From: an uncultured Gammaproteobacteria bacterium
Lineage (GTDB): Bacteria > Pseudomonadota > Gammaproteobacteria > CAWCPV01
Reading direction: 5' to 3'
Assembly (NCBI GenBank): GCA_963797555.1
Contig: CAWCPV010000013.1
Span: 32,001-96,000, forward strand
DNA: 64,000 nucleotides
The position numbers and the translations under genes were made by a program. Under the pieces are notes generated by a model. That model did not search any database. It was not told the origin of the DNA and worked only from the letters and a program-made list of their open reading frames with translations. The first letter of the stretch is position 1. Every line of letters starts with the position of its first letter. This document shows, one piece after another, positions 9,005 to 31,779 of the stretch.

Positions 9005-12000
9005 TCACAGCGCGCGATTGCCCTGTAATAATCTCATCAGCCATTTGTAAATCCAGCACAAAAAGATTTTTAGCATATCAGGACAATATGGCCAAAACGT
9101 CTTTGCTTTTCCGGTTTTCTTGAAGCCTACGCCAGACACGCTGACACCGGGTGTGGCGAGAGGCTTGAAGTCGCTATCACGCGTACGACCACTTGTGTCG
9201 GTGATGCGGATTGCCGCGGCCGCCTTAAGACCGGCCCGCCTCAAACTAAAGGACTGTGTCGTGCCCGCCGATTTTCCGAGCAGTATCCAAGAATCGCACA
9301 GGCCCCCATGCGCTGCCTCCACGGTATAGGATCGCAGATCCATGTCTGGCCGCACGAAAACGGTGACATCGTCGTCGCCCTGGGCGAGAATCGCTTCCTT
9401 CCGGACGCCGCCCGTCAGCGACCCACGCGCGCCCAGCGACACAAATGTATCCGGCGGCTTCTTTGAGATGTCCCCGAGCGCAGCCTCCGGATTCGCATGC
9501 TGGTTGGCGCCTTGGGCCGCTTCGGCGCCCTTCAGGAATTGGACGACCTTATCCGCCCAGCGCAATTGGCCCACCGGCGGCAGAGTCTGCTGTTGAATCA
9601 CCTGGCCGCCGAAGGACACGCCCAGGACAGGCGTCGCGCCGGGAGCAAACGTCAGTTGGCGGGTGTAGGTGCCATCGAGGTTGCTGACGAGCGGACCGGC
9701 GAAGTTGCCGTCCTGCACGGTCAAGTCAAAGCCGGGGGAGGTGCCCGGATCGACCAGCAACACGTTGCGAAAGCGATCGCCCGGAGCGACCACCACCTGC
9801 GCAGTGCCCGGTTGTCCGAACCGCACGTCAAGGAGGGTGAAAGCCGGATCCGGCCGTACCAAAACGTTGGTGGTGATCTTTGCCTCTCGCCGGAAGCTGC
9901 TTCCATCCTCGGTCACACCGGTGGCCGTAACGTAGAAGGTGCGCATCTCCGGCATGGAGGTGTCCGTAATCGTAGCGCGGTATGTACCGACGCCTCCCGA
10001 ATCGATCATAGCCGTGTTGCTTTGGACTTTGCCGCCCGGGAAGAACATGCCTGCCAGTGCGGCTCCCACTGTCTTGATCAAGAGCGGCGTGCTGTCCCCT
10101 TTTACTTTCTCGGCGGCCTGCTTTAACGCACTAGCCGGCACGTTTAGCCCGGCGAGCCAGTTGGCCTCCGATTGCTGGGGCGCGGTCGTGGACAGGATTA
10201 CCCCGGCGCCCTTGATGGGGCTGCCAGCAGCAGTAAGGCGTGCTGAAACCTGGATCGGATCGCCTGCGTAGAATACCGGCTGATCCAGCCGTAACTCCAT
10301 ACGCAGATCCGAATCCACGATGATGTCATAATCGTAATTTTCCAGGCCCGTTTCACTGTCGCTCAGCTCGGGACTGAGAACACGCAGGGTCCACGTGCCA
10401 TAACGCGGCCGGGTTGGATCGGCGGCGTTCCGCAGGAAGTCCGGACCGACCATATACAGTTGCGATCGATCGCCGCTGGTGAAAGTGACGTCAGGAAACA
10501 CCCCCTGTGCCGCAGCTTCCGGAGTTATTACGTCACAGGCGGGTGTTGTCAGCTCCAAGCGCATTCGTTGTGGGTCGGGCGTGTTCCAGGCCAAAACAAA
10601 GGCTGCCTTGTGATCGTATTTCGTTATCAAGGCAAAGTGGCGCGCCTCGGGCTGGCCGGCATGAAACACCGCCGACGGGTCGCCCGGCGATGACCCCGCC
10701 GTAACCCCGGCTTTGATCGCAGTACGGAACGCGGCTGCGATTTGCGTGCCGGTTAGGTGAGCGTCGTCAACCCGTTGATTCTGCGGCTGGCCGCTCTGCA
10801 GTGAACCGTCCACTAGATGTTGAAGCAATGTCGGATCGACGTTCGAAGCCCCAGTGACTCCATAGCCGATGGCAAACAGTGAGATATTCTGGTCCGCTAT
10901 CGAACTGCCTGCCGCTGCCGTGCCATTTGGAGGGAGGATGAACTCCGTCGGCTGATGGGTGCCGATATTTTGGGCACCATCCGTCATCAACACGAGCCAG
11001 CGCCGGTTCGCCTGCACACTGACGCTGTCGGTGGCGAAGTAGGTGGGAGGCTGGGCAAAGACACGATTGATGCCATCTCCCATCGGCGTGCCCGCAAAAA
11101 ACGGATTCACCCCCGCTATGGCCGTCTGCGCTGTCCCGATACCCGTCGCATCAATGTTGATGGGAGGATTAACCAAGTCAAACGTCGTCGGATCGGCGAA
11201 ATTTGTTTCCGGGAACCGAGCAACGCTGAACTTGCCTCGGTCCTGCCCAAATCCCAAGAGCAGCGGCAGGAAGTTGTTGTTGACCGCGTCCACCAGTTCG
11301 CCCCAGCGCGAGGTCGGCTGCGGTGGCGGCGGCAGCGGCAGAGGTGTGCCGTCGGGGAGCCAACTCATGCTGCCGGAATCGTCCAGCAGCATCACTACCT
11401 CCAAAGCTTGCGTCCTCGCCAATACCTTTAGTTGGTTGTTGTGTCCCACGGTGGTCCCTGCATTGGCATCCGCGGGCGTAATATTGACGGTGGCATTGGC
11501 GGTCGTCCCCCCATCTGGCGGCGGCGGTGCGGCCGGCGCGGTGAAAGTGACGGTCAACGGCTGCGAGTCGCCAGGATTCAACAAGCCGGGCACCGCTCCC
11601 AGGGCAAAGCTTCCGGGCAACGGGGGGTTCACGCTGTTGACGGTGAACGGGGCTGTGCCTCGGTTCGTGATCTGCACGCTTTCGCCCTTCGTTCCGTTGA
11701 TCAATACATCCCAGATGAGGGTGGTCGGCTGCAACGGGTCGATCAAGGGCGGAGTGGGCTCCACATCGATCCAGGGCTGGGCGGTGTTCGTTTCAGTGCC
11801 CGATACCACCCAGATGTAATCGCGTGCCGCCGCATCGTTATTGGTGATGGTGATTGTCCAGGTGTGCGATACGAACGCAACAAACGGGACGAAATCGATC
11901 GAGACGATGAACACGTTGTTGAAGCCAGGATCAGGCAGAATATTTGCGTCGGCTATGTAGGTTGCGCCCGAATAGATTGGCTGCGGTGTCCCGGTTAGAA

Positions 12001-12238
12001 TCGGAGAAGCTGGCCCGCCATCCGCCTGCAGGACGACACCGGGCATGCCCGCGCCGACCAGAGCGCCAACAGGATTCGACACCCCTATGCGGATGTACAT
12101 GAAGTTGTCGCCGTTTATGGAACCGACGGTTGAAGCCAGTTGCTCGATCGTTTTGGGTGCGCTTGTCGCGCCGGCTAGCACGTTGAGGGGTACGTTTGGG
12201 GGTGCGTATGTTAGATCTGGATATACATGCGGGTCCAT
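9005..12238 (-). CDS. Large VWA-domain protein with Ig-like domains; last gene of the CIS operon
   Basis: MIDAS elements LLDDSGSMS, TPMGDG, LMTDG; upstream ASH/Ig-like segment (ITNRGTAPF...LNPGDSQPLTVTF); no evident signal peptide. Confidence 0.8.
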   Translation of the reverse strand: MDPHVYPDLTYAPPNVPLNVLAGATSAPKTIEQLASTVGSINGDNFMYIRIGVSNPVGALVGAGMPGVVLQADGGPASPILTGTPQPIYSGATYIADANILPDPGFNNVFIVSIDFVPFVAFVSHTWTITITNNDAAARDYIWVVSGTETNTAQPWIDVEPTPPLIDPLQPTTLIWDVLINGTKGESVQITNRGTAPFTVNSVNPPLPGSFALGAVPGLLNPGDSQPLTVTFTAPAAPPPPDGGTTANATVNITPADANAGTTVGHNNQLKVLARTQALEVVMLLDDSGSMSWLPDGTPLPLPPPPQPTSRWGELVDAVNNNFLPLLLGFGQDRGKFSVARFPETNFADPTTFDLVNPPINIDATGIGTAQTAIAGVNPFFAGTPMGDGINRVFAQPPTYFATDSVSVQANRRWLVLMTDGAQNIGTHQPTEFILPPNGTAAAGSSIADQNISLFAIGYGVTGASNVDPTLLQHLVDGSLQSGQPQNQRVDDAHLTGTQIAAAFRTAIKAGVTAGSSPGDPSAVFHAGQPEARHFALITKYDHKAAFVLAWNTPDPQRMRLELTTPACDVITPEAAAQGVFPDVTFTSGDRSQLYMVGPDFLRNAADPTRPRYGTWTLRVLSPELSDSETGLENYDYDIIVDSDLRMELRLDQPVFYAGDPIQVSARLTAAGSPIKGAGVILSTTAPQQSEANWLAGLNVPASALKQAAEKVKGDSTPLLIKTVGAALAGMFFPGGKVQSNTAMIDSGGVGTYRATITDTSMPEMRTFYVTATGVTEDGSSFRREAKITTNVLVRPDPAFTLLDVRFGQPGTAQVVVAPGDRFRNVLLVDPGTSPGFDLTVQDGNFAGPLVSNLDGTYTRQLTFAPGATPVLGVSFGGQVIQQQTLPPVGQLRWADKVVQFLKGAEAAQGANQHANPEAALGDISKKPPDTFVSLGARGSLTGGVRKEAILAQGDDDVTVFVRPDMDLRSYTVEAAHGGLCDSWILLGKSAGTTQSFSLRRAGLKAAAAIRITDTSGRTRDSDFKPLATPGVSVSGVGFKKTGKAKTFWPYCPDMLKIFLCWIYKWLMRLLQGNRAL

Positions 12239-12257
12239 AATACTAAGCCTCGTGAGT

Positions 12258-13796
12258 TTAGGGTCCTGTAACGGTGAATGTGTCCGTGCTGACAGCCGAA
12301 CCGCCGGCCGTGGTGACGGTAATGTTGACGCCTAGGCTGCCTCCCGCGGCCACCATGTTGGGCGGTACCTGAACCGCGATCTGGGTTGCCGACGGCGCGC
12401 CGCTCAACACGGCGTTCGTGTTCCCGAACTTCACTGTAACCGGCGGGAAGTTGAAATTCTGGCCGAATAGCGTGATCAACGCGTTGCCTATGCCGCTCCT
12501 CGGTATAAACTGCGGCGAGGGAAGGACGGCGAAGGACGGCGCCGGGATGGTCACTTCCGCCGTGAAGTTATCGTCGCTGACCACGGTGCCTGCGGCGGTG
12601 CGCACCGTGATCCTGACGTCGGCGCTGGTGCTGCCGGCTGGCACCAGGCCAGCAGGCACGGGAACCACGATCTGGTTGGCCGTCGGCGTACCGGACGGCG
12701 TGGCCGTCACTGTTCCGAACTGCACTTGCAAACCGCCGGCATTGAAATTGAATCCGTTGATCGTGACCAGAGTGCCCGGCGTGCCGTGGATCGGACTGAA
12801 CTGGCCGCCCGGGTCGGCAAACGCCGGGTTTGGCAATACGGTGAAAGTGTCGTCGCTGACATCCGCGCCGCCGGCATTACGCACCGTGAGCTTGACGCCG
12901 GCTGGGGCGCCTCCTGGGGTCAGGCCAGATGGGACTTTCACTACGACCTGCGTGGGCGAGGGGGCTGCCACAATTGTTGCCGGCATATTGCCGAACAGTA
13001 CCTGGAGCGAACCGACGTTGAAGTTGGTGCCGAAGAGAGTGATCTGCTGGTTGATGACTCCACTCCTGGGCATGAACTGGGGGGTGGGTAGGTTGACGAA
13101 GGCCGGCAGTAGCACGAGTTTCTCCAGCAGACTCAGACGCCGCTCCATATCCGAAACGGTTAGGCGGGATTGGCGGAGGTCGGTGATCATGGCTGCGGTA
13201 ATGGTGTCGCTCCCTCGCGGCCGCTGCAACTGCGCCAGCGGATAATAGACGTGACCGGCAGGAGCAGCGGGAACCGGAACGCCTTCGGCAACCACCACGA
13301 CCCAGACCGGTTTCAACCGGACGGAGGTCTCGATCCCCACGTCCACGCCGTTGTTCAGATCGGAATCGACCGTACTGTCTACTTCGGTGAAAGAAACGTC
13401 GAGGTAGACGATGTCCGTGCGAGGATCCGGCTGCGCGGCCGTGGGAGTTGTCAGGGCGGGCACGCCCGCCTGGGCCTTATAGGTTGTGTTCGCCGGGATG
13501 GCGACTTCGATTCCGCCCACCATGCAGGTGCCCGGGCTTGCAGCTCCAGCCGCAATAACGAAATCCTGGGGCGCTGAGGCTGCGAGCGCTCGTATGGCGA
13601 ATCCGTCCACCCCGGCCGGGATGCCGTTTCCGATGTAGCGGGTAAACACCGAGCGCACGGTAGCGTTGATCAGGTCATGCAGCAAATTCAGATCCCGGTC
13701 CAGCAGCGGCACGCCTTGCTGGATATGGAGGCCCACATACCCTTTCTGCTGGTTCGCAACGAGAACATCTAGCGGCGACTTCGAGTAATCACTCAT
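12258..13796 (-). CDS. Putative CIS tail-fibre-like protein: DUF6519-like N-terminus plus three IPT/TIG repeats
   Basis: QQGVPLLDRDLN matches the DUF6519-type motif also seen at 42458; three ~90-aa repeats F.P.SG...IT.FG.NF...V.FG...TQI.V.VP...S.D.FT. Confidence 0.75.
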   Translation of the reverse strand: MSDYSKSPLDVLVANQQKGYVGLHIQQGVPLLDRDLNLLHDLINATVRSVFTRYIGNGIPAGVDGFAIRALAASAPQDFVIAAGAASPGTCMVGGIEVAIPANTTYKAQAGVPALTTPTAAQPDPRTDIVYLDVSFTEVDSTVDSDLNNGVDVGIETSVRLKPVWVVVVAEGVPVPAAPAGHVYYPLAQLQRPRGSDTITAAMITDLRQSRLTVSDMERRLSLLEKLVLLPAFVNLPTPQFMPRSGVINQQITLFGTNFNVGSLQVLFGNMPATIVAAPSPTQVVVKVPSGLTPGGAPAGVKLTVRNAGGADVSDDTFTVLPNPAFADPGGQFSPIHGTPGTLVTINGFNFNAGGLQVQFGTVTATPSGTPTANQIVVPVPAGLVPAGSTSADVRITVRTAAGTVVSDDNFTAEVTIPAPSFAVLPSPQFIPRSGIGNALITLFGQNFNFPPVTVKFGNTNAVLSGAPSATQIAVQVPPNMVAAGGSLGVNITVTTAGGSAVSTDTFTVTGP

Positions 13797-13817
13797 AACC
13801 CGCTCCTTTCCGCAACC

Positions 13818-15845
13818 TTATGTTTTAATAAAAACCGCTCTTTCTGTGATCGGCAGGAATTCTACCAAGACATTGGCGAGTCTGGAGAGCTTCGCGCTGA
13901 TCTGGTCCGGGTCATCGGTGCCCGTGCCCAGGAATAGTCCAATCGTGTCGCGGGCGATGCGGTCTTCGTTGGTTCGCAACCCGTTATCCCCTGCGTCGTA
14001 GGTATAAGCCAGAAAATCTTCAAACTTTCCCCGCAGCGCGAGCTTCGCGGTGTTGCGGGTGTCAGCCGTGGTTGCGCCGCAGTACCGCCCATCCAGTGTT
14101 TGCGTGGCGCCGTAAACCGTGCTGGTGTAAGCCAGGCTTTCATTCGAGCGGTACACCAGCAAAGTGCCCGCGCCGGTATCCACGGCCAGAGGTGCGCGGT
14201 TGGCGTAGGGCGTATTCGTGAGTTGCTGGGCCGCGCCCCAGGCCAGCGTGCCGATGTCCAAGGGGTCATGCCAGAGCGTCCAGCCGCCGCTCCGGGTGGA
14301 ACTGTAGAAGAGTTCGATGCCACCGTCGGGCGCCACCAGCGGGGACGGTTCGCGCTCGTGGTCGCCGGGCGCGTTCTTGGGGAGCGTGCTAACCCCTGAC
14401 CAGTCCGCCGCGGCCGGGTCGAGCCCCTGCTTGATCCGGTACGCGACAGTCCAGCGGCTCTGGCCGGGAGGCCCCCCCGCTTCGTGCCTGGCCCAGAACA
14501 CCCAGAGCCGCTGGCTGGGGCTGGTCGGATGGAACAGGACGTTGAGGTCGTTTTCGACGCGCGGGTCCTGGCCGCCGTCCGCCGGGAAGTCGAGCGCGGC
14601 CGGCAACCAGTTGGCGCCGTCGTGCCGGTTGTACTTGATTCCCCAGCCGGCAGCGGTTTGTTCCAGCCAGAAAAGCCAAAGCCCGCCGGCATTGTCCACG
14701 GCCGCCGCAGGCATGCGGCGCGCGGTGGCGGAATCGCTGAACACGGCGGCGGACGACCAGAGGCCGGCTGTGCGTGTACGAAAATTGATTCGCCACATCC
14801 GCTCGCCGGGCGGCTGGTTCGGGTCGTAGCTTTCCCAGAAAAGCCACAGACTGCTTCCTTGCAGCGCGGCGGCAGGGTGCATGTCGATGCCCGGTTGATC
14901 CACCACGGGCGCGCTTGGCTGCCATTGGCCGTCAGCAAACCGCTTGGTCCAGATGTCCCAGCCGTGGCGGCGATACGTATGGTAGAAGAGCGAGATTGAC
15001 CCATCGCTTTCGCGAATGCCGGTGGCACGTCCGTTGTAAACGAAATTCAGGGACGCCAGCGCCCGAGCGCCAAAGTTTCCGCCCACAGGCCGCAGGGCGG
15101 ACCATAGGTTCAACCGCTCGGGCTGGTTGGTGCGGGCCACGTTGTGGACGAATTCCTTGGTTTGGCTCTCCCAGTTGGTGATGCGCTTGACCGTGGCCTC
15201 CACGGTGGGGATGACGCCGACGGTCTGGTAGATCGACGGCGCGAAGCGAATCTCGTTGCGCTGCGCCCCCACTTCCAGGCTGTAATCCGTCTGCCAGCCG
15301 ATCCATTGCGCCAGCAGTGGCAGCAGGCTCCCCTCCAAGCGGGCCACGTCGTGCAAGCCCAGCGTCGCACGTGCCAGACTATAGATTTGGTCGAACTGAG
15401 AGCCCGGCAAATCCAGAAACCGGCGCAACTGCCCCTTGGTCCGGTCCTTAGGTGCCACAGCGGCATCCGAGGTAGGCTCCTGTGCTTCGTCGTAGCGATG
15501 GTACAGGGCGGGCAGCAGCGCATACATCTGCCCCGCGAAATCGTAAGGCGCGGTGGCCATGGCAGAGACGCGGTTGTGCGGGTCGATGTCATACTGGGGC
15601 GGGTCGTCGTGGAAAGCAAACAGGCCATAGTAGTAGACCGTCTCGCCTTGCAAGCCGAGGTCGGAAGCCGCGGCCAGGCCGGTGCCGTGCGCCACCACCA
15701 CGCCGTCGTCAGGTGCGAGCGGATGCGTGTCCTCGCGGCGTACCACGCGCACGCCGGGGAAAGCGTTGGGAGCCGGGTTGGTCCAGCTTAAGTCGATCCG
15801 GTTGCCGCCGGGATGGGCGAGGGCCGCGATATCGAGGAGGCGCAT
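13818..15845 (-). CDS. Baseplate wedge/tail protein (P2 gpI-like) with N-terminal FN3-like and C-terminal repeat domains
   Basis: LLPALYHRYD...LRRFL...LLPLLAQWIGW wedge motif; LSWTNP...YYYGLF FN3 signature; repeated LWLFW blades. Confidence 0.72.
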   Translation of the reverse strand: MRLLDIAALAHPGGNRIDLSWTNPAPNAFPGVRVVRREDTHPLAPDDGVVVAHGTGLAAASDLGLQGETVYYYGLFAFHDDPPQYDIDPHNRVSAMATAPYDFAGQMYALLPALYHRYDEAQEPTSDAAVAPKDRTKGQLRRFLDLPGSQFDQIYSLARATLGLHDVARLEGSLLPLLAQWIGWQTDYSLEVGAQRNEIRFAPSIYQTVGVIPTVEATVKRITNWESQTKEFVHNVARTNQPERLNLWSALRPVGGNFGARALASLNFVYNGRATGIRESDGSISLFYHTYRRHGWDIWTKRFADGQWQPSAPVVDQPGIDMHPAAALQGSSLWLFWESYDPNQPPGERMWRINFRTRTAGLWSSAAVFSDSATARRMPAAAVDNAGGLWLFWLEQTAAGWGIKYNRHDGANWLPAALDFPADGGQDPRVENDLNVLFHPTSPSQRLWVFWARHEAGGPPGQSRWTVAYRIKQGLDPAAADWSGVSTLPKNAPGDHEREPSPLVAPDGGIELFYSSTRSGGWTLWHDPLDIGTLAWGAAQQLTNTPYANRAPLAVDTGAGTLLVYRSNESLAYTSTVYGATQTLDGRYCGATTADTRNTAKLALRGKFEDFLAYTYDAGDNGLRTNEDRIARDTIGLFLGTGTDDPDQISAKLSRLANVLVEFLPITERAVFIKT

Positions 15846-15847
15846 GC

Positions 15848-17416
15848 CTAGAATCCCCCTTGGTTGGTGATCACCACGTTGGCGCCCGCGGCGTAAGCAG
15901 CATCGGCGGGCACCGCAGGAACTTCGTTTGCGGCAAGGTTGATCTTCCCGTGGGGCTCAATAACCGGCGTCGCCGTGTCCCCGCGCCGAAATTCACTGAT
16001 GTTTACATACAGCACCCCGGGTATCTGTTCGCTCACCTCGTAGAATTTGCTCAGATAGATCGTCTGGCCGAAAGTGACGTTATCGAACGCGAGCAGCGCG
16101 GCGGCCGCCTGCTGCACCTGCGATTGTATCTCGGAGCGCACGTAAAAGCTCTCCACCCCGATCTCGGCCGTCACGTAGATAGGCACGTAGTCCACGTCCT
16201 GGATCTCGACGATCTGGCTGAGTGTGCGTTTGTCTTCGAAGTAGGCCTTCAGGTTGGCCTCGAGCACGTCGCTCACTTTGCCGCCCCCTTCGGGAGCCAC
16301 ATAAAGCGTTACGGTGTTCCAGCCGGTGGCCCGCGCCTGCACTTTGCCCACGCCTGGGAAACTGAGAGCCAAAGCCTCATAGTCGGCAGCGGTGACGGCG
16401 CGCTTCAGCGAGCGGAACACCGCGGGTGCGTGCTGGACGGCATGCTGGATGGTTTCCCGGTCAGCCCCGCCGGTGGACGGATCGAAGTTGGTCACCTGCG
16501 CCCCCAAGAGCGCCAGTTGCGGCGCACCGACGATGGTTTGTATGGAGCCGGCGGGTGTGTTGCCGACAGCTCCACCGCCTACCCGGTAGGTGGCCAGAAT
16601 TTGCGCGCCGCTGGGCGGGATGTCGCCAAAGCCGCCGTCCCCGAAGACCACGGTCGATTCGTCGTTTTCATCGATCTCGATGACGTAATCCTTCTGGCCG
16701 GCCCGACTGAAGGCTAGGCTCTCTTGCAGGTTCCAGATGTCGATGACCCCTCCCAACTGGGTCAGAAGCACAATGTCGCGGCCGGTCTGCCCTGCCGTGC
16801 CGATCGGACGGAGAATCAGCTCGGGATGGGCGAGCACGAAGCGCTGGTTCGGCGAGCCGTCGGAGGTGCCGATCACCTCTGATTTGATCAGGCGTCCTTC
16901 CTCAACAGGAAGGCCTTTGTAAGTCTTCTTGCCGGTCGCAGGGTCAGCGGCAATCGTGCTGAAGTCGATCACCAGCGGCGCCTCGGGCGTGTATTCAAAG
17001 CGGATGCTGGGCTTGTTTTTCTGGCTCTTCGTCGCGAAGGCGTCGCCCTGACTCACCGTCACCACCGCGTCCACCGTCCCTGGAACGGTCACGTACAAGC
17101 CGGCGGAGGCCGGAACCGCAGTCGCCAACCTATACCCAATCAGACGGAGATGCTCGATGACGCTGCGCCGTGTACGCGCGGTGCCCAGGAAGCTTTCGTT
17201 TGCGACCCGGTCCTGGTAGTAGCTGAGAATGTCACCCATCTGTGCGAACAGTTCCAGCAAGACGTTCCCGAAATCGGCCTCGTTGGCAAAGTCCTTCCAT
17301 TCCGGCAGCTTGGATGGAACGAGAGCGTACATCGCCTGCAGCAGGCTTTCGTAGTCGCGCGCCATGTAATCGACGACCGGACTCCCGTTAATTTGCTTGA
17401 TCTCAGCCATGGCCAA
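15848..17416 (-). CDS. Baseplate J/gp47-like protein (Afp11-like)
   Basis: DYMARDYESL, DFGNVLLELFA, YYQDRVANESFLGTA, FGDG..G..P, YRVGGG..GN, RAVTAADY. Confidence 0.9.
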   Translation of the reverse strand: MAMAEIKQINGSPVVDYMARDYESLLQAMYALVPSKLPEWKDFANEADFGNVLLELFAQMGDILSYYQDRVANESFLGTARTRRSVIEHLRLIGYRLATAVPASAGLYVTVPGTVDAVVTVSQGDAFATKSQKNKPSIRFEYTPEAPLVIDFSTIAADPATGKKTYKGLPVEEGRLIKSEVIGTSDGSPNQRFVLAHPELILRPIGTAGQTGRDIVLLTQLGGVIDIWNLQESLAFSRAGQKDYVIEIDENDESTVVFGDGGFGDIPPSGAQILATYRVGGGAVGNTPAGSIQTIVGAPQLALLGAQVTNFDPSTGGADRETIQHAVQHAPAVFRSLKRAVTAADYEALALSFPGVGKVQARATGWNTVTLYVAPEGGGKVSDVLEANLKAYFEDKRTLSQIVEIQDVDYVPIYVTAEIGVESFYVRSEIQSQVQQAAAALLAFDNVTFGQTIYLSKFYEVSEQIPGVLYVNISEFRRGDTATPVIEPHGKINLAANEVPAVPADAAYAAGANVVITNQGGF

Positions 17417-17419: not shown

Positions 17420-17788
17420 TCATCTGAACTGAATGCGAACTGCTTGCCGCGAAAGATCCTTGCGGCTAATGTAAGCCACCTCGATGGTGACGGTTTCGTC
17501 CACTGCTGTCACATTTACCCCGTTCACCACGAGTTGGTCGCCTAGCCAGCGGGTCAGCGCGGCGCCTACCGTAAACTCCATCGCCGCTCCCAGGATGGTG
17601 TTGGCGGGGTCGAAAACCAGGTTGAAAAGACCACACCCAAAGTCAGGGTGGTTCACCCGCTCGCCCGGAGTCGTGAACAACACCTGGATAATTTTCCCCT
17701 GAAGATCGACATCCTCGTCGGGATCCGGAATGATCGCACCCCCCGGCGAGACGGCAAAAGGGAAGCCAAAACCTGTCGCCATCCGCAT
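17420..17788 (-). CDS. GPW/gp25-family baseplate protein (Afp9-like)
   Basis: GFGFPF, ILFT.PGERV.HPDFGCGL-type motif. Confidence 0.92.
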   Translation of the reverse strand: MRMATGFGFPFAVSPGGAIIPDPDEDVDLQGKIIQVLFTTPGERVNHPDFGCGLFNLVFDPANTILGAAMEFTVGAALTRWLGDQLVVNGVNVTAVDETVTIEVAYISRKDLSRQAVRIQFR

Positions 17789-17803: not shown

Positions 17804-18298
17804 CTACGCTGAACAGCTCACGAAACTCTGGCCTGCGGCGGCCACAGTCGAGTTCGCTTTGCCCCCTGTGCCGTCGCAGGTGTCGATCTTGTCGCCATCC
17901 AAAAGCACCTTGACCCCGCCAATCGTCAGCAGAGCGCTGCCGGCAGCGGCGTTCGGCACGCCGATGCCGATCACGTCCTTAATTGACAGGGTGAGCGGGA
18001 TCGGCACGGGCGTTGCTGGCGTGAAACCGCTGCCGGCCGGCCCGGAATGCCCGCCCGCCGGCGGAGCCGCCTCGCCGGGATTCAGCGAACTCTTGCTCGT
18101 CAGCAGTGCGACTGGCTTGCCGCCGATCTTGACGAACGTGCTCAAACCGTCCGTCATCCCGCCCTTGTACACAAAACTGCCGATTCCCGTGTAGGGCACG
18201 GTTGGCGGCGGCGGCGCGGGATTGGTGGCGTTGCCCATCACGTTGTGCTTGTCCGTCCCCTGCACGGCGTCGCCCTGTATCACGACCTTCTTGCCCAT
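17804..18298 (-). CDS. PAAR-like spike tip protein
   Basis: Lies between gp5 and gp25; V.IGG.P repeats; GD...G.D.H and D.CD; no literal PAAR motif. Confidence 0.65.
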   Translation of the reverse strand: MGKKVVIQGDAVQGTDKHNVMGNATNPAPPPPTVPYTGIGSFVYKGGMTDGLSTFVKIGGKPVALLTSKSSLNPGEAAPPAGGHSGPAGSGFTPATPVPIPLTLSIKDVIGIGVPNAAAGSALLTIGGVKVLLDGDKIDTCDGTGGKANSTVAAAGQSFVSCSA

Positions 18299-21948: not shown

Positions 21949-23585
21949 CAGTTAATCGTGATGGTGTCGGTACCACCGATTTGTCGATTCTCGTTACAGA
22001 CGTCAACCACAGAAATCCTGAATCGCATTTGTCCCGTATCCGCGGCAAACATATGTGGATCGTCATGGCCTTCAAACGTCGCGCCGGAAGCTTGAGCCAG
22101 ATTGCCCGCCGCATTCACGTATCGATTTCCAGCCACCCCTCCTCCGAATCCCGTCCTATGGCCGTATCGCTGGGCATTCGCAGCATCTCTATCTTCGATA
22201 AAGGTATCCACCGGTTGCGCCGCCGGGAAGCCGGCATGCGGCACTGGATTCCCCGGGGGGGTCGCCGCGAAGCTGGCTGCCATAGCGGCATCCCACGAGA
22301 TTTCCTGGCGCACCTCACAACAGGACGCGAAAATCCCGTTATCGGGATCGTGGTCGAACGTCGCCGCGAGGGCGAAAGGCACATGCCTTCCCGCTCCCGC
22401 TGGGGCGGTTACTACACCGTGGGGCGTGTAAGTGGGGCCTGTTCTGACCCTTCCCCTTCGCACTAAGCTCGCCAGTGTTTTGGATTCAGCAGACAACCCT
22501 TCCGCCCTCAATTCCCGAAACAACGGGGCCGCCGTGTCAGGCCCGAGTTTGCCATTCTGCGCTAGGTTGTTCGCGGCCTGCCACCTTGCCACCGCGTTCA
22601 CGAAATCCTCATCAATCACCGCCGGATCCTTGCCAATTCCCAGGACGTCTCGCAGAGTCCCGATAAGCGCAGCATCCGCAGCGCCAATTTTTATCGTATT
22701 GTACTGGATGGCCGCCTGCACCTGGGCGGCGGTCAGAGATCCCGCATCGGCCGTTGGATTAGGCGGTTCAATAGCGAAGTCCGCCTGGATGGATGGAACG
22801 CTGGTTTGCCTCTCGGAGTCGTCCCCGTCCTCCGGCGTTCTGACCGACTCCCGGTCGCGTTCCTTGTTGTCATCGGTCTCATCCGCCAACTTGCGCTGCA
22901 ACCCGCCGCCCTGCTGTAGCACGTGCGTCAACTCGTGAGCCAGCAGTTCCCGACCGGAGTGACTATCCGGATTATATTCTCCCTGGCGGAAAAAGATACC
23001 CTGTCCCCTGGTAAAGGCGCGCGCATTGAGAGTACGATTGAGGTCGTCGGCGGAGGCTCCAGTATGCACACGGACACCGCTGAAGTCGTAGCCGAAGCGA
23101 GGTTCAAAAAAGGCGCGAGTCGCTCCGGGCAGCGGCTGGCCGCTTCCAATGGACTGAATTCGGCTCTCTACTTCCGGAGACACAGCAGCGGCGTGGTCAG
23201 TTGCCGCCCGTCTCTGAATAACGTTTACTCCCCATTGCTGCCCCGGTGCCGCCCGTCGTTGCAGGGAAGGTTCCGGCATCCGCATCACCAGCCCGGCCAC
23301 GCGGTCCGCTTCTTGTTCGAAGGAATCACCGGCGGATCCAATCGTCAGTTTGGCCTGTACGTGGCGTGGCGGGCAGTTCCGGCGTCCACCCATGCTGCAG
23401 CCGTTGCGGTCGTGCGTCTCCTGGCCCGGCCCGCAGCAGGCAGTCGCGGTCTGCAGATAGCTGTTACCTAGACCGCGTTGGAGAGACTGTATGGCGTCGG
23501 ATGTTTGACTGGGCGCTGGCTCAGCGCAGTGCTTCACACTTGGCGCCACGTCCAGGGCAACTTCTTTGCTTCGAGATGCAAACAT
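21945..23585 (-). CDS. DUF4157 (eCIS core) protein with PG-binding-like and unknown C-terminal domains
   Basis: QAKL.I...GD.FEQEAD, RFGYDFSGVRVHT, ARAFT.G..I.F, LLAHELTHVLQQ; AVARWQ..NNL...GKLGPDT. Confidence 0.88.
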   Translation of the reverse strand: MFASRSKEVALDVAPSVKHCAEPAPSQTSDAIQSLQRGLGNSYLQTATACCGPGQETHDRNGCSMGGRRNCPPRHVQAKLTIGSAGDSFEQEADRVAGLVMRMPEPSLQRRAAPGQQWGVNVIQRRAATDHAAAVSPEVESRIQSIGSGQPLPGATRAFFEPRFGYDFSGVRVHTGASADDLNRTLNARAFTRGQGIFFRQGEYNPDSHSGRELLAHELTHVLQQGGGLQRKLADETDDNKERDRESVRTPEDGDDSERQTSVPSIQADFAIEPPNPTADAGSLTAAQVQAAIQYNTIKIGAADAALIGTLRDVLGIGKDPAVIDEDFVNAVARWQAANNLAQNGKLGPDTAAPLFRELRAEGLSAESKTLASLVRRGRVRTGPTYTPHGVVTAPAGAGRHVPFALAATFDHDPDNGIFASCCEVRQEISWDAAMAASFAATPPGNPVPHAGFPAAQPVDTFIEDRDAANAQRYGHRTGFGGGVAGNRYVNAAGNLAQASGATFEGHDDPHMFAADTGQMRFRISVVDVCNENRQIGGTDTITINW

Positions 23586-23613: not shown

Positions 23614-25815
23614 TTACTGCTTGAGCCCGCTGATAGAGTGCCGCTCCTTCCATAGCTTGCCGATCTTTTCGAACTCCTGCCGCGCCCCACGCAGAATATG
23701 CTCCATTTCAATCAGACCGCCGTCTCGCGCAGCCGAAAAGGCCGAGTTCAGAACGATATTCTTGATGTTTCCCCCCGCCACCTGAAGATCCCGCGCAAGA
23801 ATCCGGCAATCAACCTCCGACGATACCGGCGCTTCCGCCGGGAAATGCGTCTGCCAAATCCGCAAGCGATTGGCCTCATTAGGAAACGGAAACTCGACGA
23901 TGAAGCGAATGCGGCGCGCGAATGCTTCGTCCATGTTCTCCCTGAGATTCGTCGCCAGAATCACCATGCCTTCGTACTCCTCCATCTTCTGCAGCAGGTA
24001 ACTGGTCTCGATGTTGGCGTAGCGGTCGTGCGCGTCGCTCACTTCGGTCCGCTTGCCGAATAGGGCGTCTGCCTCGTCGAAGAAGAGGATGGCGTTACTG
24101 GTTTCGGCTTCGGCGAAAATGCGGGAGAGGTTCTTCTCGGTCTCGCCAATATATTTGCTGACTACGCTCGACAGATCGACCTTGTACAGATCCAGTTCCA
24201 GTTCGCGGGCCAGAACCTCGGCCGCCATGGTTTTACCGGTGCCCGAGGGCCCGGTGAATAGCACGCTCAAGCCCTTCCCATGGCCCAGCTTCTTCCCAAA
24301 GCCCCAGGTTCCGAAGACGCGGTATTGATGCCGGACCTGGCTGCAGATCTCGCGCAAGTGGGCCAACTTGTCCTCGGGCAGCACGATGTCGTCCCACCCG
24401 TAATGCGGCTCGATCTTGACCGCGAGTTCGCGGAGCTTGTGATTAGACTGCGCCCGACAAGCGGCGGCGAGATCGGAGGCCGATAAGGCGCGCGGCTTCG
24501 ATACAGTAAGGCAGACATTTTGCGCCAGTTCGACCGCCGCCCGAATCTGCGCGGGCGTCAACCGGAATTGTGCCGCCAGTTGGGCGGCCCAAGCCGCCGC
24601 CTCGGCCGTTTGGCCAGCCAGGCAGCGCTCCCACGCGACCGCGCGCGCGGGAACATCGGGCAGCGGCAGCTCCACCGAGTGAAAAAGGCAGTCCGTAAAC
24701 GCCTGTTTGGGAGTCCATGGCGTCGCGGCGCTCAGAAAAACCAGCCAGCCGAATTCCGAGATGGCCGCTTGCAGGGCTTTGAGCAGCGGACGCGCGGCGT
24801 CCCGCAAGAGTACCTCGGCATTTTCCAGGTAAAGAAAGGCCTGCTGCAGCAGCGCTTCTCGAAATGCCAGGCGCAGGAGATCCTCCGCTTCCGATCCCCG
24901 GGCGAGCAATAGTTCCGCGTCTAGGCTCAACAAAAAGCTGTGGAGCCGCCGACAGATGTGCAGCGCGAGTTCGCGCTTGCCGACACCCTGCGGGCCGTGC
25001 AGATGAAGGACCAGCTTGCGCTTGTCCCTGTTCTCCGGAGCCAGGTGGCGGCCAACCAGGTTCTCCACGCCGGCAACGATGAAGGAGTCCATCGGCGGCT
25101 GGTCCGCATGACCGCTGGGTTGCTGGAACTGGGCGTGTCCCGCCAGCCGGGCATCGATCTGGCTGCCGCCCAACAAAAACTGGCAGATCCGGGTGTCCAA
25201 TGCGAGTAGCTGAGCAAGACCGCTGGATCCGGACGGGCTGTTAGAATCATTTACCTTCCGGAGCAGACCGGAGCGCAATAGGGGTGCCGAGTCGCAGAGA
25301 AGCCTTCGGGCCTCCCACTGTTGAGCCTCCGAACCGCACAGCAGCTCCAGCACCAAATCCACGCTGGGCCGCTTGCGCGTGAGGTCGTCCTGTAAATAGG
25401 CGTACAGCCGGTCATACTTGCGTCGCAGTTCGGGGGCGAGACAAATGACGACCACCTCCCGTTCAAAAGCCGACAGGCCAAACAGATGGCCCAGTTGAGC
25501 CAGCGCGGGGAACATACCCTCCTTCAGGCTATGGGCAACCCGGCCGTCGATCTCCGCCCTCAACCGCTCCAGTCCGGCACGCATTTCCAGGACTTCGGCA
25601 TCGCCGGCTTTGGGCGTCCCGCCCTCATCGAGCAGCCACTCGACCTCCGCCGGTGTGATGTAAACTGTCCGCGAAGCCTGCGCCTCGGGCACGGCCTGGT
25701 TCTGCAAGGCCAATGTCCTGGTCCTTAGCCGGATCAGCAGATCGAGCCAGCGCAACTCGTCTTCCAGATGCTCGTAGTTGTTACCGTAAGGACGCATTTC
25801 CGATCCCGGGCTCAT
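23614..25815 (-). CDS. CIS AAA+ ATPase (Afp15/Pvc15-like)
   Basis: FGLS.FE...APE...LYAYLQDD..RKRP; GPSGTGKT, VSKYIGETEKNL, FDEADALFGKR..V.DAHDRYAN. Confidence 0.93.
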   Translation of the reverse strand: MSPGSEMRPYGNNYEHLEDELRWLDLLIRLRTRTLALQNQAVPEAQASRTVYITPAEVEWLLDEGGTPKAGDAEVLEMRAGLERLRAEIDGRVAHSLKEGMFPALAQLGHLFGLSAFEREVVVICLAPELRRKYDRLYAYLQDDLTRKRPSVDLVLELLCGSEAQQWEARRLLCDSAPLLRSGLLRKVNDSNSPSGSSGLAQLLALDTRICQFLLGGSQIDARLAGHAQFQQPSGHADQPPMDSFIVAGVENLVGRHLAPENRDKRKLVLHLHGPQGVGKRELALHICRRLHSFLLSLDAELLLARGSEAEDLLRLAFREALLQQAFLYLENAEVLLRDAARPLLKALQAAISEFGWLVFLSAATPWTPKQAFTDCLFHSVELPLPDVPARAVAWERCLAGQTAEAAAWAAQLAAQFRLTPAQIRAAVELAQNVCLTVSKPRALSASDLAAACRAQSNHKLRELAVKIEPHYGWDDIVLPEDKLAHLREICSQVRHQYRVFGTWGFGKKLGHGKGLSVLFTGPSGTGKTMAAEVLARELELDLYKVDLSSVVSKYIGETEKNLSRIFAEAETSNAILFFDEADALFGKRTEVSDAHDRYANIETSYLLQKMEEYEGMVILATNLRENMDEAFARRIRFIVEFPFPNEANRLRIWQTHFPAEAPVSSEVDCRILARDLQVAGGNIKNIVLNSAFSAARDGGLIEMEHILRGARQEFEKIGKLWKERHSISGLKQ

Positions 25816-26651
25816 GGCATCACCTCGAACAGAAACGTCCTGCGAAACAGGCGCGAGACATCCACACGAATGTCATAAAAGCCTGGCAACGTGCCCGCCG
25901 GAATCGTGGCATTGAAGGTATCGCCAGCCAGGGCCTGCTGGTCGAGCACTGTCTGGTCGCCCACCAAGACAGTAACCTTCCATCCGGCCAGATTCTCGCC
26001 CGTGAAAGTGACCGCGGTGCCGGCAGGCCCGCTGGCGGGTGTCATGTCCAGCACGGCCGGCGGGCTGAAGGGCGCCCGCACGCCGGGAACGCCGATGGTC
26101 CGCACCCGCTTTGGCAGCGGCATCTCTCCCGCCGGCGACATGTCCAGTTGCACGGTCAAGACTTGATAGCGGACCGACAGGCGAAAAGGCTGTGCGAAGG
26201 TGCTCCAAAGACGGCTGAGTTCTTCCGGGTCCAAGGCGTTGTATACAATTCTGAATTCCTCCCTGGCGGTTTTCAGGTCGGTTTCCAGATACTGCTGTGG
26301 GATGACGGAATTCTCGTAGAACACGCGCATGGCCTCACCGAGGATCTCGTGCGCCGTCGAGTTGCCGGTCTGCGGATCGTTGCGCGCGTATGGCGTCACC
26401 AGGTAGTACAGGTTGAGCGACAAGGGCGCGGGCGCCAGCTGATTCGAATTCCCCGGTTTCAACGACCAATCCTGGTTTTTCAGGAAGGTGTTTTCCTCGA
26501 TCTTGTAGAGAAACAGATTGATTCGTTGATCGCCGCCGGCCTCGTCGGGCGCCAGAATCGTCACCGGCACCGCCGGGTTCAACTGCATTTCTCCCACCAA
26601 GAGATTGCGCAGCGATGTGCTGACCAAGCCCAAGGCAGTGGACACGCTCAC
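25812..26651 (-). CDS. DUF4255/Pvc16-like cap protein with C-terminal IPT/TIG domain
   Basis: INLFLY...EN...N, PL.L.L.YL.T, ILG.AM..F, EELS.LW.....FRLS..Y; PASGPAGTAVTFTGENL. GTG start overlaps the upstream stop. Confidence 0.85.
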   Translation of the reverse strand: MSVSTALGLVSTSLRNLLVGEMQLNPAVPVTILAPDEAGGDQRINLFLYKIEENTFLKNQDWSLKPGNSNQLAPAPLSLNLYYLVTPYARNDPQTGNSTAHEILGEAMRVFYENSVIPQQYLETDLKTAREEFRIVYNALDPEELSRLWSTFAQPFRLSVRYQVLTVQLDMSPAGEMPLPKRVRTIGVPGVRAPFSPPAVLDMTPASGPAGTAVTFTGENLAGWKVTVLVGDQTVLDQQALAGDTFNATIPAGTLPGFYDIRVDVSRLFRRTFLFEVMP

Positions 26652-27943
26652 CGCCGGATCCTCACGCTCAAGTGAGTTAGATGCCTGCGCTCCCAGAAGG
26701 CGATGGAAGTGGCCATGACGGCGTGGGCGGAATCCTGCTTGACCACAATCACGGAAGCTTGTGTCGACGGCGCGGCGGGCGCATGGTTGGAAGGGAAGTC
26801 CGCCGAACCTTGCTGGCGGGGCTCGGACGACCTGCGCATGCCACTTCCGGAGGTCTGCTCTGGTCGGCGCACTGTAGGGAAGCTTCGTGCCAACGACGCG
26901 GCATTCCGGCCCTGCGGATCGGGCACTTGGTGCCGGCGTGCAGATTGCGCAAGGGTTGGCGCCGCTGGGCACTTGGGCAGGGGCTCGCCTGAAATGGGTT
27001 GTGGATTCTCGGCCGCCGCCAGATGCGGTTCCCGCGCGGCCTGATGCGGTGCCGTGCGACGCAGTGGCGGGATGGCGACGGTGCTTCCGTCCGGGATCCG
27101 TAGGGATGGCGTATCTATCACCTTTGGACACGACTCCTTGGCATTTGCGTGCAAGTCCACAGGCGCGGCCTCACTCAAGGAGATCCCGCCTCGTGTCGCC
27201 GTAAGGCGCTGCCGTTCGTGGAACCCCGGGACACCCGGAATGATCACGTCCTGCTGGGTCAGCGAAACTCCATCGATCCCCCCGGCTCCGATTGTGTCGG
27301 CATCTTTTGCGAAACCTTTGGGGGCATCTAAGTCTCCAAAGGGAGCAGAAAATGGGCGACGGGCTGTCGCACCCGACGGACCGCCCTCGTCCCGCATCGG
27401 CCCCGGCGTGTATTCCTCTTCGCTGCGCACTGCGCCACGGCTCCCGCCGCGGCCGGACGCCCCGTCGGAAGCCGGAGGTCTAGTCTCCGCCCGCGTCGGC
27501 GCCGCAGACGTTGGCAAAATCTCTGGCCCTAGGGACGCTCCGCGCTCATCGGCCTCGCTTCGGTCTCCTTGCCCCTTCGCCGGAGCCGCGCGCTGGTTCG
27601 CTGCGCGCGGGTTGGATGCCCGTTCCCCCTCGTCCGGCATGCCGCGCCCGCGAGGCATCGTCCCATAAGGCGAAGAGCGCGTTTTTTCTTCCATCATGTA
27701 AGCTGGGCCGCGTGGATGGCCCGCCAGGAATTCATCCGAAAAGTCGAATTCACCTGTGAATCGCGGGCGGACGTACCCGAAGTCGGCAACCGGAATCGGT
27801 TTGAAGAAGTTCATCTCGACATCGCTGGACTCGGGAAGGCCGAGCAGCGCCCGAACACGGCAGCGGTAGCGAAACGGCCGGGCGCCGTCCGAGAGCACCC
27901 CGTACAGATAAGCTTTCGCTGCGCCCTCTGTTTTACTCGCCAT
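26648..27943 (-). CDS. Low-complexity hypothetical protein in the CIS operon
   Basis: 431-aa P/A/G/S/R-rich ORF overlapping both neighbours. Confidence 0.6.
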   Translation of the reverse strand: MASKTEGAAKAYLYGVLSDGARPFRYRCRVRALLGLPESSDVEMNFFKPIPVADFGYVRPRFTGEFDFSDEFLAGHPRGPAYMMEEKTRSSPYGTMPRGRGMPDEGERASNPRAANQRAAPAKGQGDRSEADERGASLGPEILPTSAAPTRAETRPPASDGASGRGGSRGAVRSEEEYTPGPMRDEGGPSGATARRPFSAPFGDLDAPKGFAKDADTIGAGGIDGVSLTQQDVIIPGVPGFHERQRLTATRGGISLSEAAPVDLHANAKESCPKVIDTPSLRIPDGSTVAIPPLRRTAPHQAAREPHLAAAENPQPISGEPLPKCPAAPTLAQSARRHQVPDPQGRNAASLARSFPTVRRPEQTSGSGMRRSSEPRQQGSADFPSNHAPAAPSTQASVIVVKQDSAHAVMATSIAFWERRHLTHLSVRIRR

Positions 27944-28829
27944 TATTCAGCCTCTCAATTTCATCCGCGAGCAGTTCAACGTACATCTGCCGCTTGTTCC
28001 GCGGCATCGCCATGATTTCATGCTCGCTCCAATGATAGTGGTAAGCCAAATAATGCACCTGGCGATACAGCAATTCGCTGTCGGTGCGTAGTTCGCCGAA
28101 AAAAAAGTGGTGCACGTCGAACGGCACCACGAAGGCGCGACCGCATTCCGAACAGTTGGTTTCGATGTTCAACTCGATTTTTGGCGTCACCCGCTCCATC
28201 TCAGCTTCGATTTCCGCGCGTGCGAGAGGCGGCAGTGCCGCCACGTGCTCGAAGTCTGGTGGGGACAGTGGGCCGATACGCTGGATCGTGCGAGCCAGGA
28301 GCAGGGTCAAGGACTTTGCTTCGTTTTCTGCGAGCAAGGCCGAAAGCGCCTCTTGGTCGGCCCCATTGGGCAAGCGGAAGTTGATCTCCCGCCGTGTCAC
28401 CTCCTCTTCAGCGCAGGCGCGGGGCGAAAGGGTCATGGTGTAGAACGGTGCCCGCTCGACGGCTTCCTCGACAGGCACGTCGTCGATGCCGAACTTCATG
28501 GACACCCGCCGCCCACAGTCGGCCCACGGACAGAAGACATCGGCGCGAACCATGTCACCGAACGTGAGCTGGCGCAACTTGAGCAAGAGGTACTGCCGGT
28601 CAGCGACCAGGAATTGACGGGCAACATCCTCAGTGACCGGGCTGATGCCTCCCAGGCGCCGCACACCGCGGCTCAAGACCGCGCTAACCAGAGACGCTGT
28701 TTCCCCCCCCCGAGCCTGGACCAGCAGTTCCTCCTCGCGCCCGGTCAGCACGGCCAGCTCAAACTCGCGGTGCAACGCGCCAGCCGCGTCCCAGTAGCCG
28801 CCTGGGAGCATACCTGTCATTTCTACCAT
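27933..28829 (-). CDS. T4 gp26-like baseplate/chaperone protein fused to a DUF6760-like tail
   Basis: LPGGY, LTGREEE, VADR.YLLL.LR..TFG, two CxxC-type motifs; C-terminal VHYLAYHYHWS..EIM.MPR..R. Confidence 0.75.
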   Translation of the reverse strand: MVEMTGMLPGGYWDAAGALHREFELAVLTGREEELLVQARGGETASLVSAVLSRGVRRLGGISPVTEDVARQFLVADRQYLLLKLRQLTFGDMVRADVFCPWADCGRRVSMKFGIDDVPVEEAVERAPFYTMTLSPRACAEEEVTRREINFRLPNGADQEALSALLAENEAKSLTLLLARTIQRIGPLSPPDFEHVAALPPLARAEIEAEMERVTPKIELNIETNCSECGRAFVVPFDVHHFFFGELRTDSELLYRQVHYLAYHYHWSEHEIMAMPRNKRQMYVELLADEIERLNNGE

Positions 28830-28966
28830 GGCTTCTCGTAGCTCCAGTTCCCCGCCAAACTTTAGGTGGCGTCACTAAATAATCCTGCGACTTAAGTGTA
28901 ACTGATAGCCATTCTTTGCAAACCATGCGCTCTGGATATCGGCAGAGCCTTTTTGCCACAGTGACT

Positions 28967-29467
28967 TTAGGACTCCTTGGGTTCGGTCACCGAAGTGTCA
29001 CGCACCCAGCCCTCGTTCTCCAGCTTTATGGTGGTTATCATCACGCCATTGCCGGACGCGTCCAGTTGCGGGAGTGCTTGGTATTCCGAAACCCAACAGC
29101 GAAACAGGTTGTACGCCAACACCTTTACACCCTGGGTATTGTAAACCTCGATGCTGATATCCTTGCGAAAGGACGCCAGCGAACTGGCGGCATCGCCCTG
29201 GAAGTTATTTACTTTGTTAGCCCACTGCTCGAACGTTGTATCGTGGGTGACGCCGGCTTCGAGCGTGATGGCGTCATACTTGGTTTTCCCGGGAATCTGG
29301 TGCGGGCCGCTGGAGTCGCCACCCTCGTACCACGGCGTCACCTCGGTGGTCCGCTTCAGGGCGCCGCATTTACTCAGGCCGGCCACGTATTGGCCATCCC
29401 ACTTGAGCTTGAATTTAAAGCCAAGATAGGGGTCGAATCGGGTGCTATTTACGGTGAATTTGGGCAT
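28967..29467 (-). CDS. Tail tube protein (T4 gp19-like, Afp1/5-like)
   Basis: RFDPY..FKF, PG.TKY.AITLE.GVTHD..FE.WA, RCWVSEYQALP.LDA, LENEGW.RD. Confidence 0.93.
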   Translation of the reverse strand: MPKFTVNSTRFDPYLGFKFKLKWDGQYVAGLSKCGALKRTTEVTPWYEGGDSSGPHQIPGKTKYDAITLEAGVTHDTTFEQWANKVNNFQGDAASSLASFRKDISIEVYNTQGVKVLAYNLFRCWVSEYQALPQLDASGNGVMITTIKLENEGWVRDTSVTEPKES

Positions 29468-29497
29468 GCAAGTTCTCCTTTCCGGTATGAGATGTCA

Positions 29498-31438
<1,941 letters not shown>

Positions 31439-31476
31439 GGTCTTGCTCCTTTCATATGTGTTCGAGCGCAGTCCGC

Positions 31477-31779
31477 CTAATCGGCGGCTGGGTCAACTTT
31501 GGTCTTGCGTCCGCGCGGACGCGAGTCCCCCTCGTCCTGGCGAGCTGGCTCGGCTATTCCGCCTTCAGTCTCGGTCGGCTTGGCCGCATCGCTCTCTTCT
31601 CCAGCGCGCTCGACAGTAATTGCACGTTGGCATAGCAGCTTGTCAATTTTGGGGTTAGCTTTCAACTCAACATCATGGAACACAGCCGAGATCTCCCCGG
31701 GGGATAAGCGCAAATTCGTCCCACTATTCAGGGGTACGAAAATTGGCCTTGGAGTCAAGTTTCTAATAGCGACGGACAT
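31477..31779 (-). CDS. Small hypothetical protein preceding the sheath
   Basis: AAGGAG RBS then MSVAIRNLT..PIFVPLNSG..LRL.PGE; co-oriented first gene of the operon. Confidence 0.7.
   Translation of the reverse strand: MSVAIRNLTPRPIFVPLNSGTNLRLSPGEISAVFHDVELKANPKIDKLLCQRAITVERAGEESDAAKPTETEGGIAEPARQDEGDSRPRGRKTKVDPAAD

Follow-up and report, generated by a model that had tools for sequence, protein, structure and literature searches.

Extracellular contractile injection systems (eCIS) fall into six subtypes, of which IIc is one, and the subtypes of lineage II have been described as generally lacking the Afp14 tape measure, with afp8 split in IIa to IIc, two afp11 copies in IIa and IIc, and no afp10 in IIb (PMC6899500; this source and the others cited below are drawn on in excerpt). 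Searches of the open full-text literature (subscription papers lay outside their scope) found no experimental study, structure or function for subtype IIc. Here we describe a contractile injection system (CIS) of 19 genes that occupies positions 9005..31779, on the minus strand, of a 64,000-nucleotide (nt) stretch of an uncultured Gammaproteobacteria bacterium (contig CAWCPV010000013.1, positions 32,001 to 96,000; assembly GCA_963797555.1), which is referred to below as the window. All 19 open reading frames (ORFs) were confirmed as real and they constitute an intact eCIS-type locus. On the evidence of its sequence, the locus is an eCIS of the IIc lineage, and it is a variant with a single baseplate J protein rather than a typical IIc locus.

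The two IIc loci used as references (viz. Mycobacterium sp. JS623 pMYCSM01 and Novosphingobium resinovorum SA1 pSA1) share with the window locus a gene order running from sheath, tube, gp26/DUF6760 protein, spacer gene, Pvc16, AAA ATPase and DUF4157 cargo to initiator, LysM protein, gp27, gp5, a small gene, gp25 and J, and they likewise have one sheath, one tube, a split spike, no tape measure and a fibre with a homologous N-terminus. They differ in having two J proteins of 800-980 amino acids (aa), whereas the window has one of ~520 aa; compared with JS623, the window locus also has a wedge with a propeller-like insert, a short TIG fibre and, after it, a VWA/beta-sandwich gene. The IIa system of Halogeometricum borinquense is similar in its split spike, separate initiator and LysM genes, PAAR protein, lack of a tape measure and DUF4157 cargo, but it has two Cis11 genes and two tube genes in another order, falls in a separate clade, and is membrane-bound through a six-helix anchor that has no counterpart in the window (PMC11566945). 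The cytoplasmic IId systems of Streptomyces and Roseiflexus (PMC12998442) are the best Protein Data Bank matches for the window sheath and J, and in the IId-type loci compared one J gene precedes a small gp7-like one; however, their spike is fused and VgrG-like, they form a different clade, and their loci lack a fibre of the window type. In the eBAP3/eBAP5 and Tail_P2_I class, the fibre gene lies right behind the Tail_P2_I adaptor and has a DUF6519-related anchor of ~200 aa, but neither a propeller within the adaptor nor a VWA protein as a separate partner is mentioned in the excerpts of the source (PMC12923769). The Afp/PVC systems (Ia) share the core of tube, sheath, hub/spike, gp25, J, AAA ATPase and cap, but have three sheaths, two tubes, a fused Afp8, Afp12 and the Afp14 tape measure, and are distant in trees; unlike the window locus, Afp also has lysis genes.

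The initial annotation of this locus had stressed its non-canonical layout. Since lineage II has already been published as lacking the tape measure and having a split spike (PMC6899500), the layout is non-canonical only in relation to Afp/PVC, and a separate LysM gene, which had also been thought unusual, is found in the IIa and IIc reference loci as well. The real departures are the single J, the propeller-bearing wedge and the VWA partner, which are not the features that were first emphasised. Its description as poorly characterised is a fair one, in view of the absence of experimental work on IIc from the literature searched. As judged from listings, the literature on CIS in connection with Acidobacteria, Nitrospira or propeller, lectin and gp7 proteins holds no description of the single-J form, which is apparently a recurring, undescribed baseplate variant of the already catalogued IIc family.

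Membership in the eCIS is indicated by matches above cut-off, within one locus, to Afp11 (TIGR02243/PF04865) and to the non-phage Afp1/5 tube (TIGR02241/PF06841). All eight eCIS core types (viz. Afp1/5, 2/3/4, 7, 8, 9, 11, 15, and 16) are present, with Afp7 and the gp27 half of Afp8 counted on sub-cut-off matches plus position. In the J tree, the window protein belongs to a clade of 10 single-J rows (support 100/100), which is nested in a 17-row clade that contains both J paralogues of JS623 and SA1 (100/100) and whose internal branching order lacks resolution. This tree retained 33 of 45 rows after the removal of 12 that were long branches (including Afp11) or near-duplicates, and a tree of all 45 rows gave the same grouping. 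The sheath and gp27 trees, supported by the Shimodaira-Hasegawa-like approximate likelihood ratio test (SH-aLRT) only, also recover the IIc grouping (SH-aLRT 99 and 98, respectively). Furthermore, afp8 is divided into gp27 and gp5 ORFs, as subtype IIc demands, the weakly matching PAAR-like gene between gp5 and gp25 fits the presence of afp10 in IIc, and Pfam and NCBIfam scans of the locus gave no match to the tape-measure (afp14) and Afp6 families. The match to a known subtype extends to three trees and to the JS623 gene order from sheath to J, whereas the baseplate periphery differs. Because the IIc definition includes two afp11 copies and one is found here, we have filed the locus as a variant within the IIc clade.

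Besides the two IIc loci, the J-tree references comprise three IIa loci (Halogeometricum pHBOR03, Rhodococcus pWB1 and the P. caribensis MBA4 plasmid), one proxy for IIb (S. clavuligerus, in another strain than the listed one), one IId locus (Rhodovulum MB263 pRSMBA) plus a proxy, one Ia locus and no Ib locus. The Mitsuaria PDC51 locus grouped with IIa, though another Mitsuaria strain is listed under IIb, and was excluded as a reference. Subtype IIb, which was first suspected because a single J occurs together with a split spike, was rejected on the presence of the PAAR-like gene and the lack of grouping with the S. clavuligerus proxy; IId was rejected on the split rather than fused afp8 and its separate clade, and lineage I (Afp/PVC/MAC) on the absence of a fused afp8, afp12 and the afp14 tape measure. 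A prophage tail or a classical type VI secretion system was likewise rejected, as PF03237, PF03354, PF06744, and PF05936 had 0 matches in the 85%-complete genome (controls were positive; capsid families were searched in the locus only), leaving no match to terminase, TssM or TssK and upholding the eCIS nature of the locus. The database dbeCIS lists Nitrospira defluvii under IIc, for which reason single-J members may already be catalogued there; Nitrospira metagenome-assembled genomes (MAGs) carry the single-J variant.

The 19 genes are co-oriented, each with one terminal stop and no internal stops, and the spacing between them is -11 to +137 nt (<40 nt at 17 of the 18 junctions), in agreement with the earlier description of a tightly coupled operon free of frameshifts. 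Labels were assigned from Pfam and NCBIfam scans with curated cut-offs and agree with those given initially for most of the 19 genes. They support the sheath, gp19 tube, T4_baseplate plus DUF6760, Pvc16_N plus TIG, WHD plus AAA, eCIS_core (DUF4157) plus PG_binding_1, gp5 OB, gp25, Baseplate_J and threefold TIG assignments, while the initiator, LysM, hub, PAAR, and wedge labels combine gene position with matches below the curated cut-off (CIS_tube E 5e-5, LysM-like 0.007, GPD 4e-6, PAAR 0.004, and Tail_P2_I 0.036). Two small ORFs (100 aa and 144 aa) and a 431-aa protein have no Pfam or NCBIfam family match. The ratio of nonsynonymous to synonymous substitution rates (dN/dS) is 0.04-0.18 in all 10 operon genes tested against the closest loci (L080 and L003), and the 22.8 kb operon is free of insertion sequence (IS) elements, although elements with ~14-20 genomic copies sit 2-8 kb away. 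The proposal that the system is functional is supported by this intactness and purifying selection at the sequence level. Short contigs with 0-1 differences from the locus at several places were present in a soil DNA run and diverged relatives in a peat DNA run, with no piece spanning the locus in either.

The single baseplate J/gp6 protein (Afp11; 15848..17416, with ATG at 17410 as its likely start) matches PF04865 and TIGR02243 above cut-off. Of the 31 loci whose J is closely related, 26 had room for the neighbouring genes, and all 26 have a single J that is directly followed by the wedge gene; the other five ended too soon, and L084-L086 and L087-L088 look like duplicates. Named loci of this kind come from Acidobacteria, Actinobacteria, Nitrospirota, Chloroflexota and one Thiohalomonadaceae MAG, and close copies of the variant are found in Rugosimonospora africana NBRC 104875, Actinomadura miaoliensis JCM 16702, and Streptomyces pseudovenezuelae. 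The 675-aa gp7/Tail_P2_I-like wedge protein (13818..15845) begins with 100 residues that, judged by eye, we take to be FN3-like, and its Tail_P2_I core is weak, being matched in four of 10 homologues. Its Trp-rich insert shows repeats and matches the profile of PLL/PHL propeller lectins with a best E of 2.6e-7, over single repeats only. A profile search with the wedge gave 423 clusters at E < 1e-30, with ~70 of the best 150 matching nearly end to end, and no significant similarity to the JS623 wedge was detected (hhalign 1%).

The 512-aa fibre (12258..13796) consists of an N-terminal part of 215 aa that aligns with DUF6519-positive homologues, and with the JS623 IIc fibre (hhalign 94%), followed by three IPT/TIG domains. 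Shoulder anchors of ~200 aa related to DUF6519 have been tied to Tail_P2_I baseplates (eBAP; PMC12923769). In L118, L119, and L121 (Nitrospirota, Thiohalomonadaceae and Anaerolineae), an extra conserved gene of 176-183 aa without a Pfam match lies between wedge and fibre, and at L079:5574-7625 a pair of small ORF and sheath begins right after the fibre, which suggests a rearranged or tandem locus.

The last gene of the operon (9005..12238) encodes a 1077-aa multi-beta-sandwich protein with 43 other homologues and is a predicted adhesin. Its VWA domain is matched on homologues only and not on the window protein itself, but the metal ion-dependent adhesion site (MIDAS) residues D286/S288/S290/T384/D420 are invariant in 37 sequences. 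The structure model (predicted local distance difference test, pLDDT, 86.5) is a chain of beta-sandwiches around the VWA domain, and a fold search with the whole protein listed SpaC/PitA pilus adhesins among its matches, with an overall template modelling score under 0.2 that is uninformative. Of 18 loci that are long enough, 13 have a homologue of at least the N-terminal part after the fibre. In one locus (L099:15596-17554), the protein encoded behind the fibre gene has this N-terminal domain fused to ASH and TIG domains and lacks VWA, a replacement that suggests the N-terminal part to be a docking domain. A C-terminal amphipathic helix was considered as a membrane anchor and rejected, the helix not being conserved among 37 homologues. 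In two other loci (L119:10337-12934 and L121:6747-9269), the fibre gene is followed by one whose product begins with a hydrophobic, signal-like stretch, and the L119 protein has CBM9 and VWA matches.

The interval between ATPase and initiator genes contains an insert in 15 of 19 loci and is empty in four. Ten of the inserts proved to encode DUF4157 proteins that differ in their C-termini, and one scanned insert had no match; the slot holds a Tse3-N (muramidase-type) domain in two relatives and a weak metallopeptidase match in one more. In the window it is filled by a 546-aa protein (21945..23585) with eCIS_core (PF13699), peptidoglycan-binding (PG_binding_1, PF01471; above cut-off) and Ig-like C-terminal domains, and DUF4157 has been described as toxin-associated (PMC8213781). 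The C-terminal half of this putative cargo has 75 protein matches, one of them an RHS protein, and its Ig-like domain has invariant polar residues and a model with pLDDT 92 (best Z 7.8). An enzyme identity for the C-terminus was rejected, since only generic Ig folds were found. Next to the cargo gene lies a gene for a 144-aa partner (21514..21948; G+C content at third codon positions 0.57), whose homologues adjoin the same cargo type in locus L080 and, with consecutive locus tags, in a Bacteroidia MAG; its product may be an immunity protein or a chaperone. An orphan DUF4157 gene lies near a contig end (C2 265033-265221; L132), at a distance from both CIS loci of this genome.

We consider it reasonably probable (about 0.6) that the locus encodes an intact headless tail of the IIc lineage that is released, guided by adhesins, and delivers into bacteria a DUF4157-tagged cargo with a peptidoglycan-binding domain. 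From known CIS biology, the hub, spike, and PAAR protein would form the needle, the initiator, LysM protein, gp25, J, and wedge the baseplate, and the tube and sheath would polymerise and be capped by Pvc16, with the AAA+ ATPase probably assisting loading. T4 and R-pyocin baseplates have a (gp6)2-gp7 stoichiometry, and the wedge is by analogy predicted to be a homodimer of the single J with its gp7-like partner. After release from the producer cell, a particle on which the VWA protein would have docked would probably attach to other cells by means of its propeller and its TIG and VWA modules and inject the tagged cargo into a bacterial target, and the 144-aa product might protect from the cargo or chaperone it. 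Release and an antibacterial role are proposed because a fibre and adhesins are present, no protein has a membrane segment (none in 19 of 19 operon proteins by hydropathy, maximum 1.71), the cargo has a peptidoglycan-binding domain and a small gene is linked to it. If this is true, the system would recognise cells in ways new to CIS, with a receptor-binding domain housed in the wedge and a VWA adhesin docked on the particle. The variant is compact, comes with a candidate cargo and partner of its own, and is closely matched in named strains of Actinobacteria, which makes open questions on lineage II testable, viz. whether particles are released or retained, how length is controlled without a tape measure, and how targets are chosen.

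Several observations weigh against this reading. The subtype references are few, with labels decoded by eye from the glyph-coded figure text of the PMC6899500 supplement, and the characterised lineage II systems are membrane-bound (IIa, PMC11566945) or cytoplasmic (IId, PMC12998442), the mode of action of a CIS not being reliably readable from sequence (PMC12998442). The family matches of the locus include no lysis or regulator genes, and a sigma-70 promoter scan upstream of the operon gave no match (0.7 expected). The fold search with the C-terminal domain of the cargo gave no enzyme and only generic Ig folds with Z < 8, and VWA, Ig, and lectin-like modules could equally well bind eukaryotic cells. 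The 144-aa protein lacks the hydrophobic signal segment that one would expect of an immunity protein acting against a toxin in the periplasm, and just three further copies of its gene were found, compared with 75 cargo matches.

A more far-reaching proposal, to which we give tentative and rather limited credence, is that the single-J clade represents a subtype of eCIS not yet recognised, which moves whole between phyla (Acidobacteria, Actinobacteria, Nitrospirota, Chloroflexota, and Proteobacteria). Such a subtype would combine a T4/pyocin-like (gp6)2-gp7 baseplate with three layers of recognition (a lectin-like propeller in the wedge, a short fibre with TIG domains and an exchangeable VWA adhesin that docks on the particle via its conserved N-terminal domain), and its effectors would belong to an undescribed peptidoglycan-binding Ig-fold family shared with RHS toxins.

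Rather unlikely, in our view, is that the same particle acts while held in its producer, either in the cytoplasm, as in IId, or bound to the membrane, as in the haloarchaeal IIa system. This would accord with the lack of lysis genes, with the nearest solved sheaths being those of Streptomyces and Halogeometricum, and with the fact that both characterised lineage II modes are non-released (PMC11566945; PMC12998442), but a retained particle is at odds with the absence of a transmembrane anchor among the 19 proteins, the conservation of the fibre and two further predicted adhesion modules, and the lack of a TssM/TssK match in the 85%-complete genome. It appears improbable that a released particle is directed against soil eukaryotes (protists or fungi), whose surfaces the VWA, TIG and lectin-like modules would then bind, while the peptidoglycan-binding fold would serve another purpose. 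This reading draws on the MIDAS-bearing VWA domain and PLL/PHL-like propeller and on the listing of VWA among possibly anti-eukaryotic eCIS domains (PMC8213781), whereas the above-cut-off PG_binding_1 match of the cargo, the Tse3-N domains that two relatives carry in their cargo slot and the small linked downstream gene argue for the bacterial target that we prefer. There is only a slim chance that the locus is a recently imported but silent island, intact for want of time to decay, as no IS element or stop interrupts its 22.8 kb despite multi-copy elements so close by, even if such elements and a broken canonical IIc fragment flank it, no sigma-70 promoter match lies upstream and dN/dS against distant relatives reflects past selection and not current use.

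The remaining genes of the operon encode the front half of the system and the tube, spike and sheath-initiating components. The first encodes a small conserved 100-aa protein (31477..31779), whose homologues directly precede the sheath gene in related loci. The 646-aa sheath of Cis2/Afp2-4 type (29498..31438; PF04984, PF17482), with the Streptomyces and Halogeometricum CIS sheaths as its nearest solved structures, is followed by the 166-aa inner tube (Cis1/Afp1; 28967..29467; PF06841 E 5e-40, TIGR02241) and by a 298-aa fusion of T4_baseplate (gp26-like) and DUF6760 (27933..28829; PF12322, PF20546), which is a probable tail assembly chaperone. A low-complexity protein of 431 aa (26648..27943) is conserved in position in related loci and in sequence only over its N- and C-terminal 50-90 aa; it is a candidate length or cap factor. 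The 279-aa Pvc16/Cis16 cap with a C-terminal TIG domain (25812..26651; PF14065 E 1e-37, PF01833) precedes the 733-aa AAA+ ATPase (Afp15/Cis15; 23614..25815; PF22977, PF00004), in which Walker A (522) and Walker B (576) are both intact. A Nitrososphaerales archaeon MAG (L039) has the same front-half gene order as the window. Beyond the cargo and its partner lie the 240-aa tube initiator (20759..21481; PF19266, below cut-off but in a conserved position), the 193-aa LysM/tail-X-like baseplate protein (20173..20754; weak PF05489 and PRK11198 matches), the 375-aa gp27-like hub (19045..20172; PF05954) and the 248-aa gp5-like spike (18302..19048; PF04717), which correspond to the N- and C-terminal halves of Afp8 (NF033848 positions 4-348 and 372-542, respectively), the 164-aa PAAR-like spike tip (17804..18298; PF05488) and the 122-aa gp25 sheath initiator (Afp9; 17420..17788; PF04965).

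The locus was likely acquired horizontally, as judged from its composition and relatives. The G+C content of its block is 60.7%, against a block median of 64.6% (a value this low is found in three of 226 genome blocks), and its tetranucleotide use is as far from that of the genome as in four of 226 blocks, both counts possibly including blocks that overlap the locus. Multi-copy IS elements lie on both sides of the operon. The nearest sheaths are acidobacterial (79-86%; best 86%, in a Bryobacteraceae MAG) and actinobacterial (66-79%), and among 40 genomes of the same class eight have weak sheath matches, none with >45% identity and these over part of the protein. The surrounding genes had been described as nearly all broken, which holds for the passenger genes (viz. 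a sigma-54 fragment, IS5 and ISL3 in two frames, a wedge split by IS66 and a DUF6519 gene in two frames) but not for the IS630- and IS66-type transposase frames, which look whole.

The same genome contains traces of further systems. The window carries at 38333-43895 (+) the remnant of a second, canonical IIc-type CIS, with its wedge split by an IS66-like element and its DUF6519 fibre in two frames, the best matches of which are the two-J loci L123, L070, and L110. On contig C3 (27100-39300; L066) there is a CIS locus with a fused VgrG-like spike and a single J, which groups with the IId locus of Rhodovulum MB263 in the J and sheath trees. Upstream of the operon, a 302-aa frame (32101-33009, -) has no Pfam match and no equivalent in the compared loci, and a DruA-family match (PF14236; 40800-41702, -) is present beside the IS66-like transposase, in a stretch with ~14 genomic copies. 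On the other side, positions 4710-8877 contain a sigma-54 activator fragment, followed by IS1380-type, ISL3, and interrupted IS630-like elements, and the adjoining genes are, as we presume from their translations, the mraZ-rsmH-ftsL-ftsI cluster.

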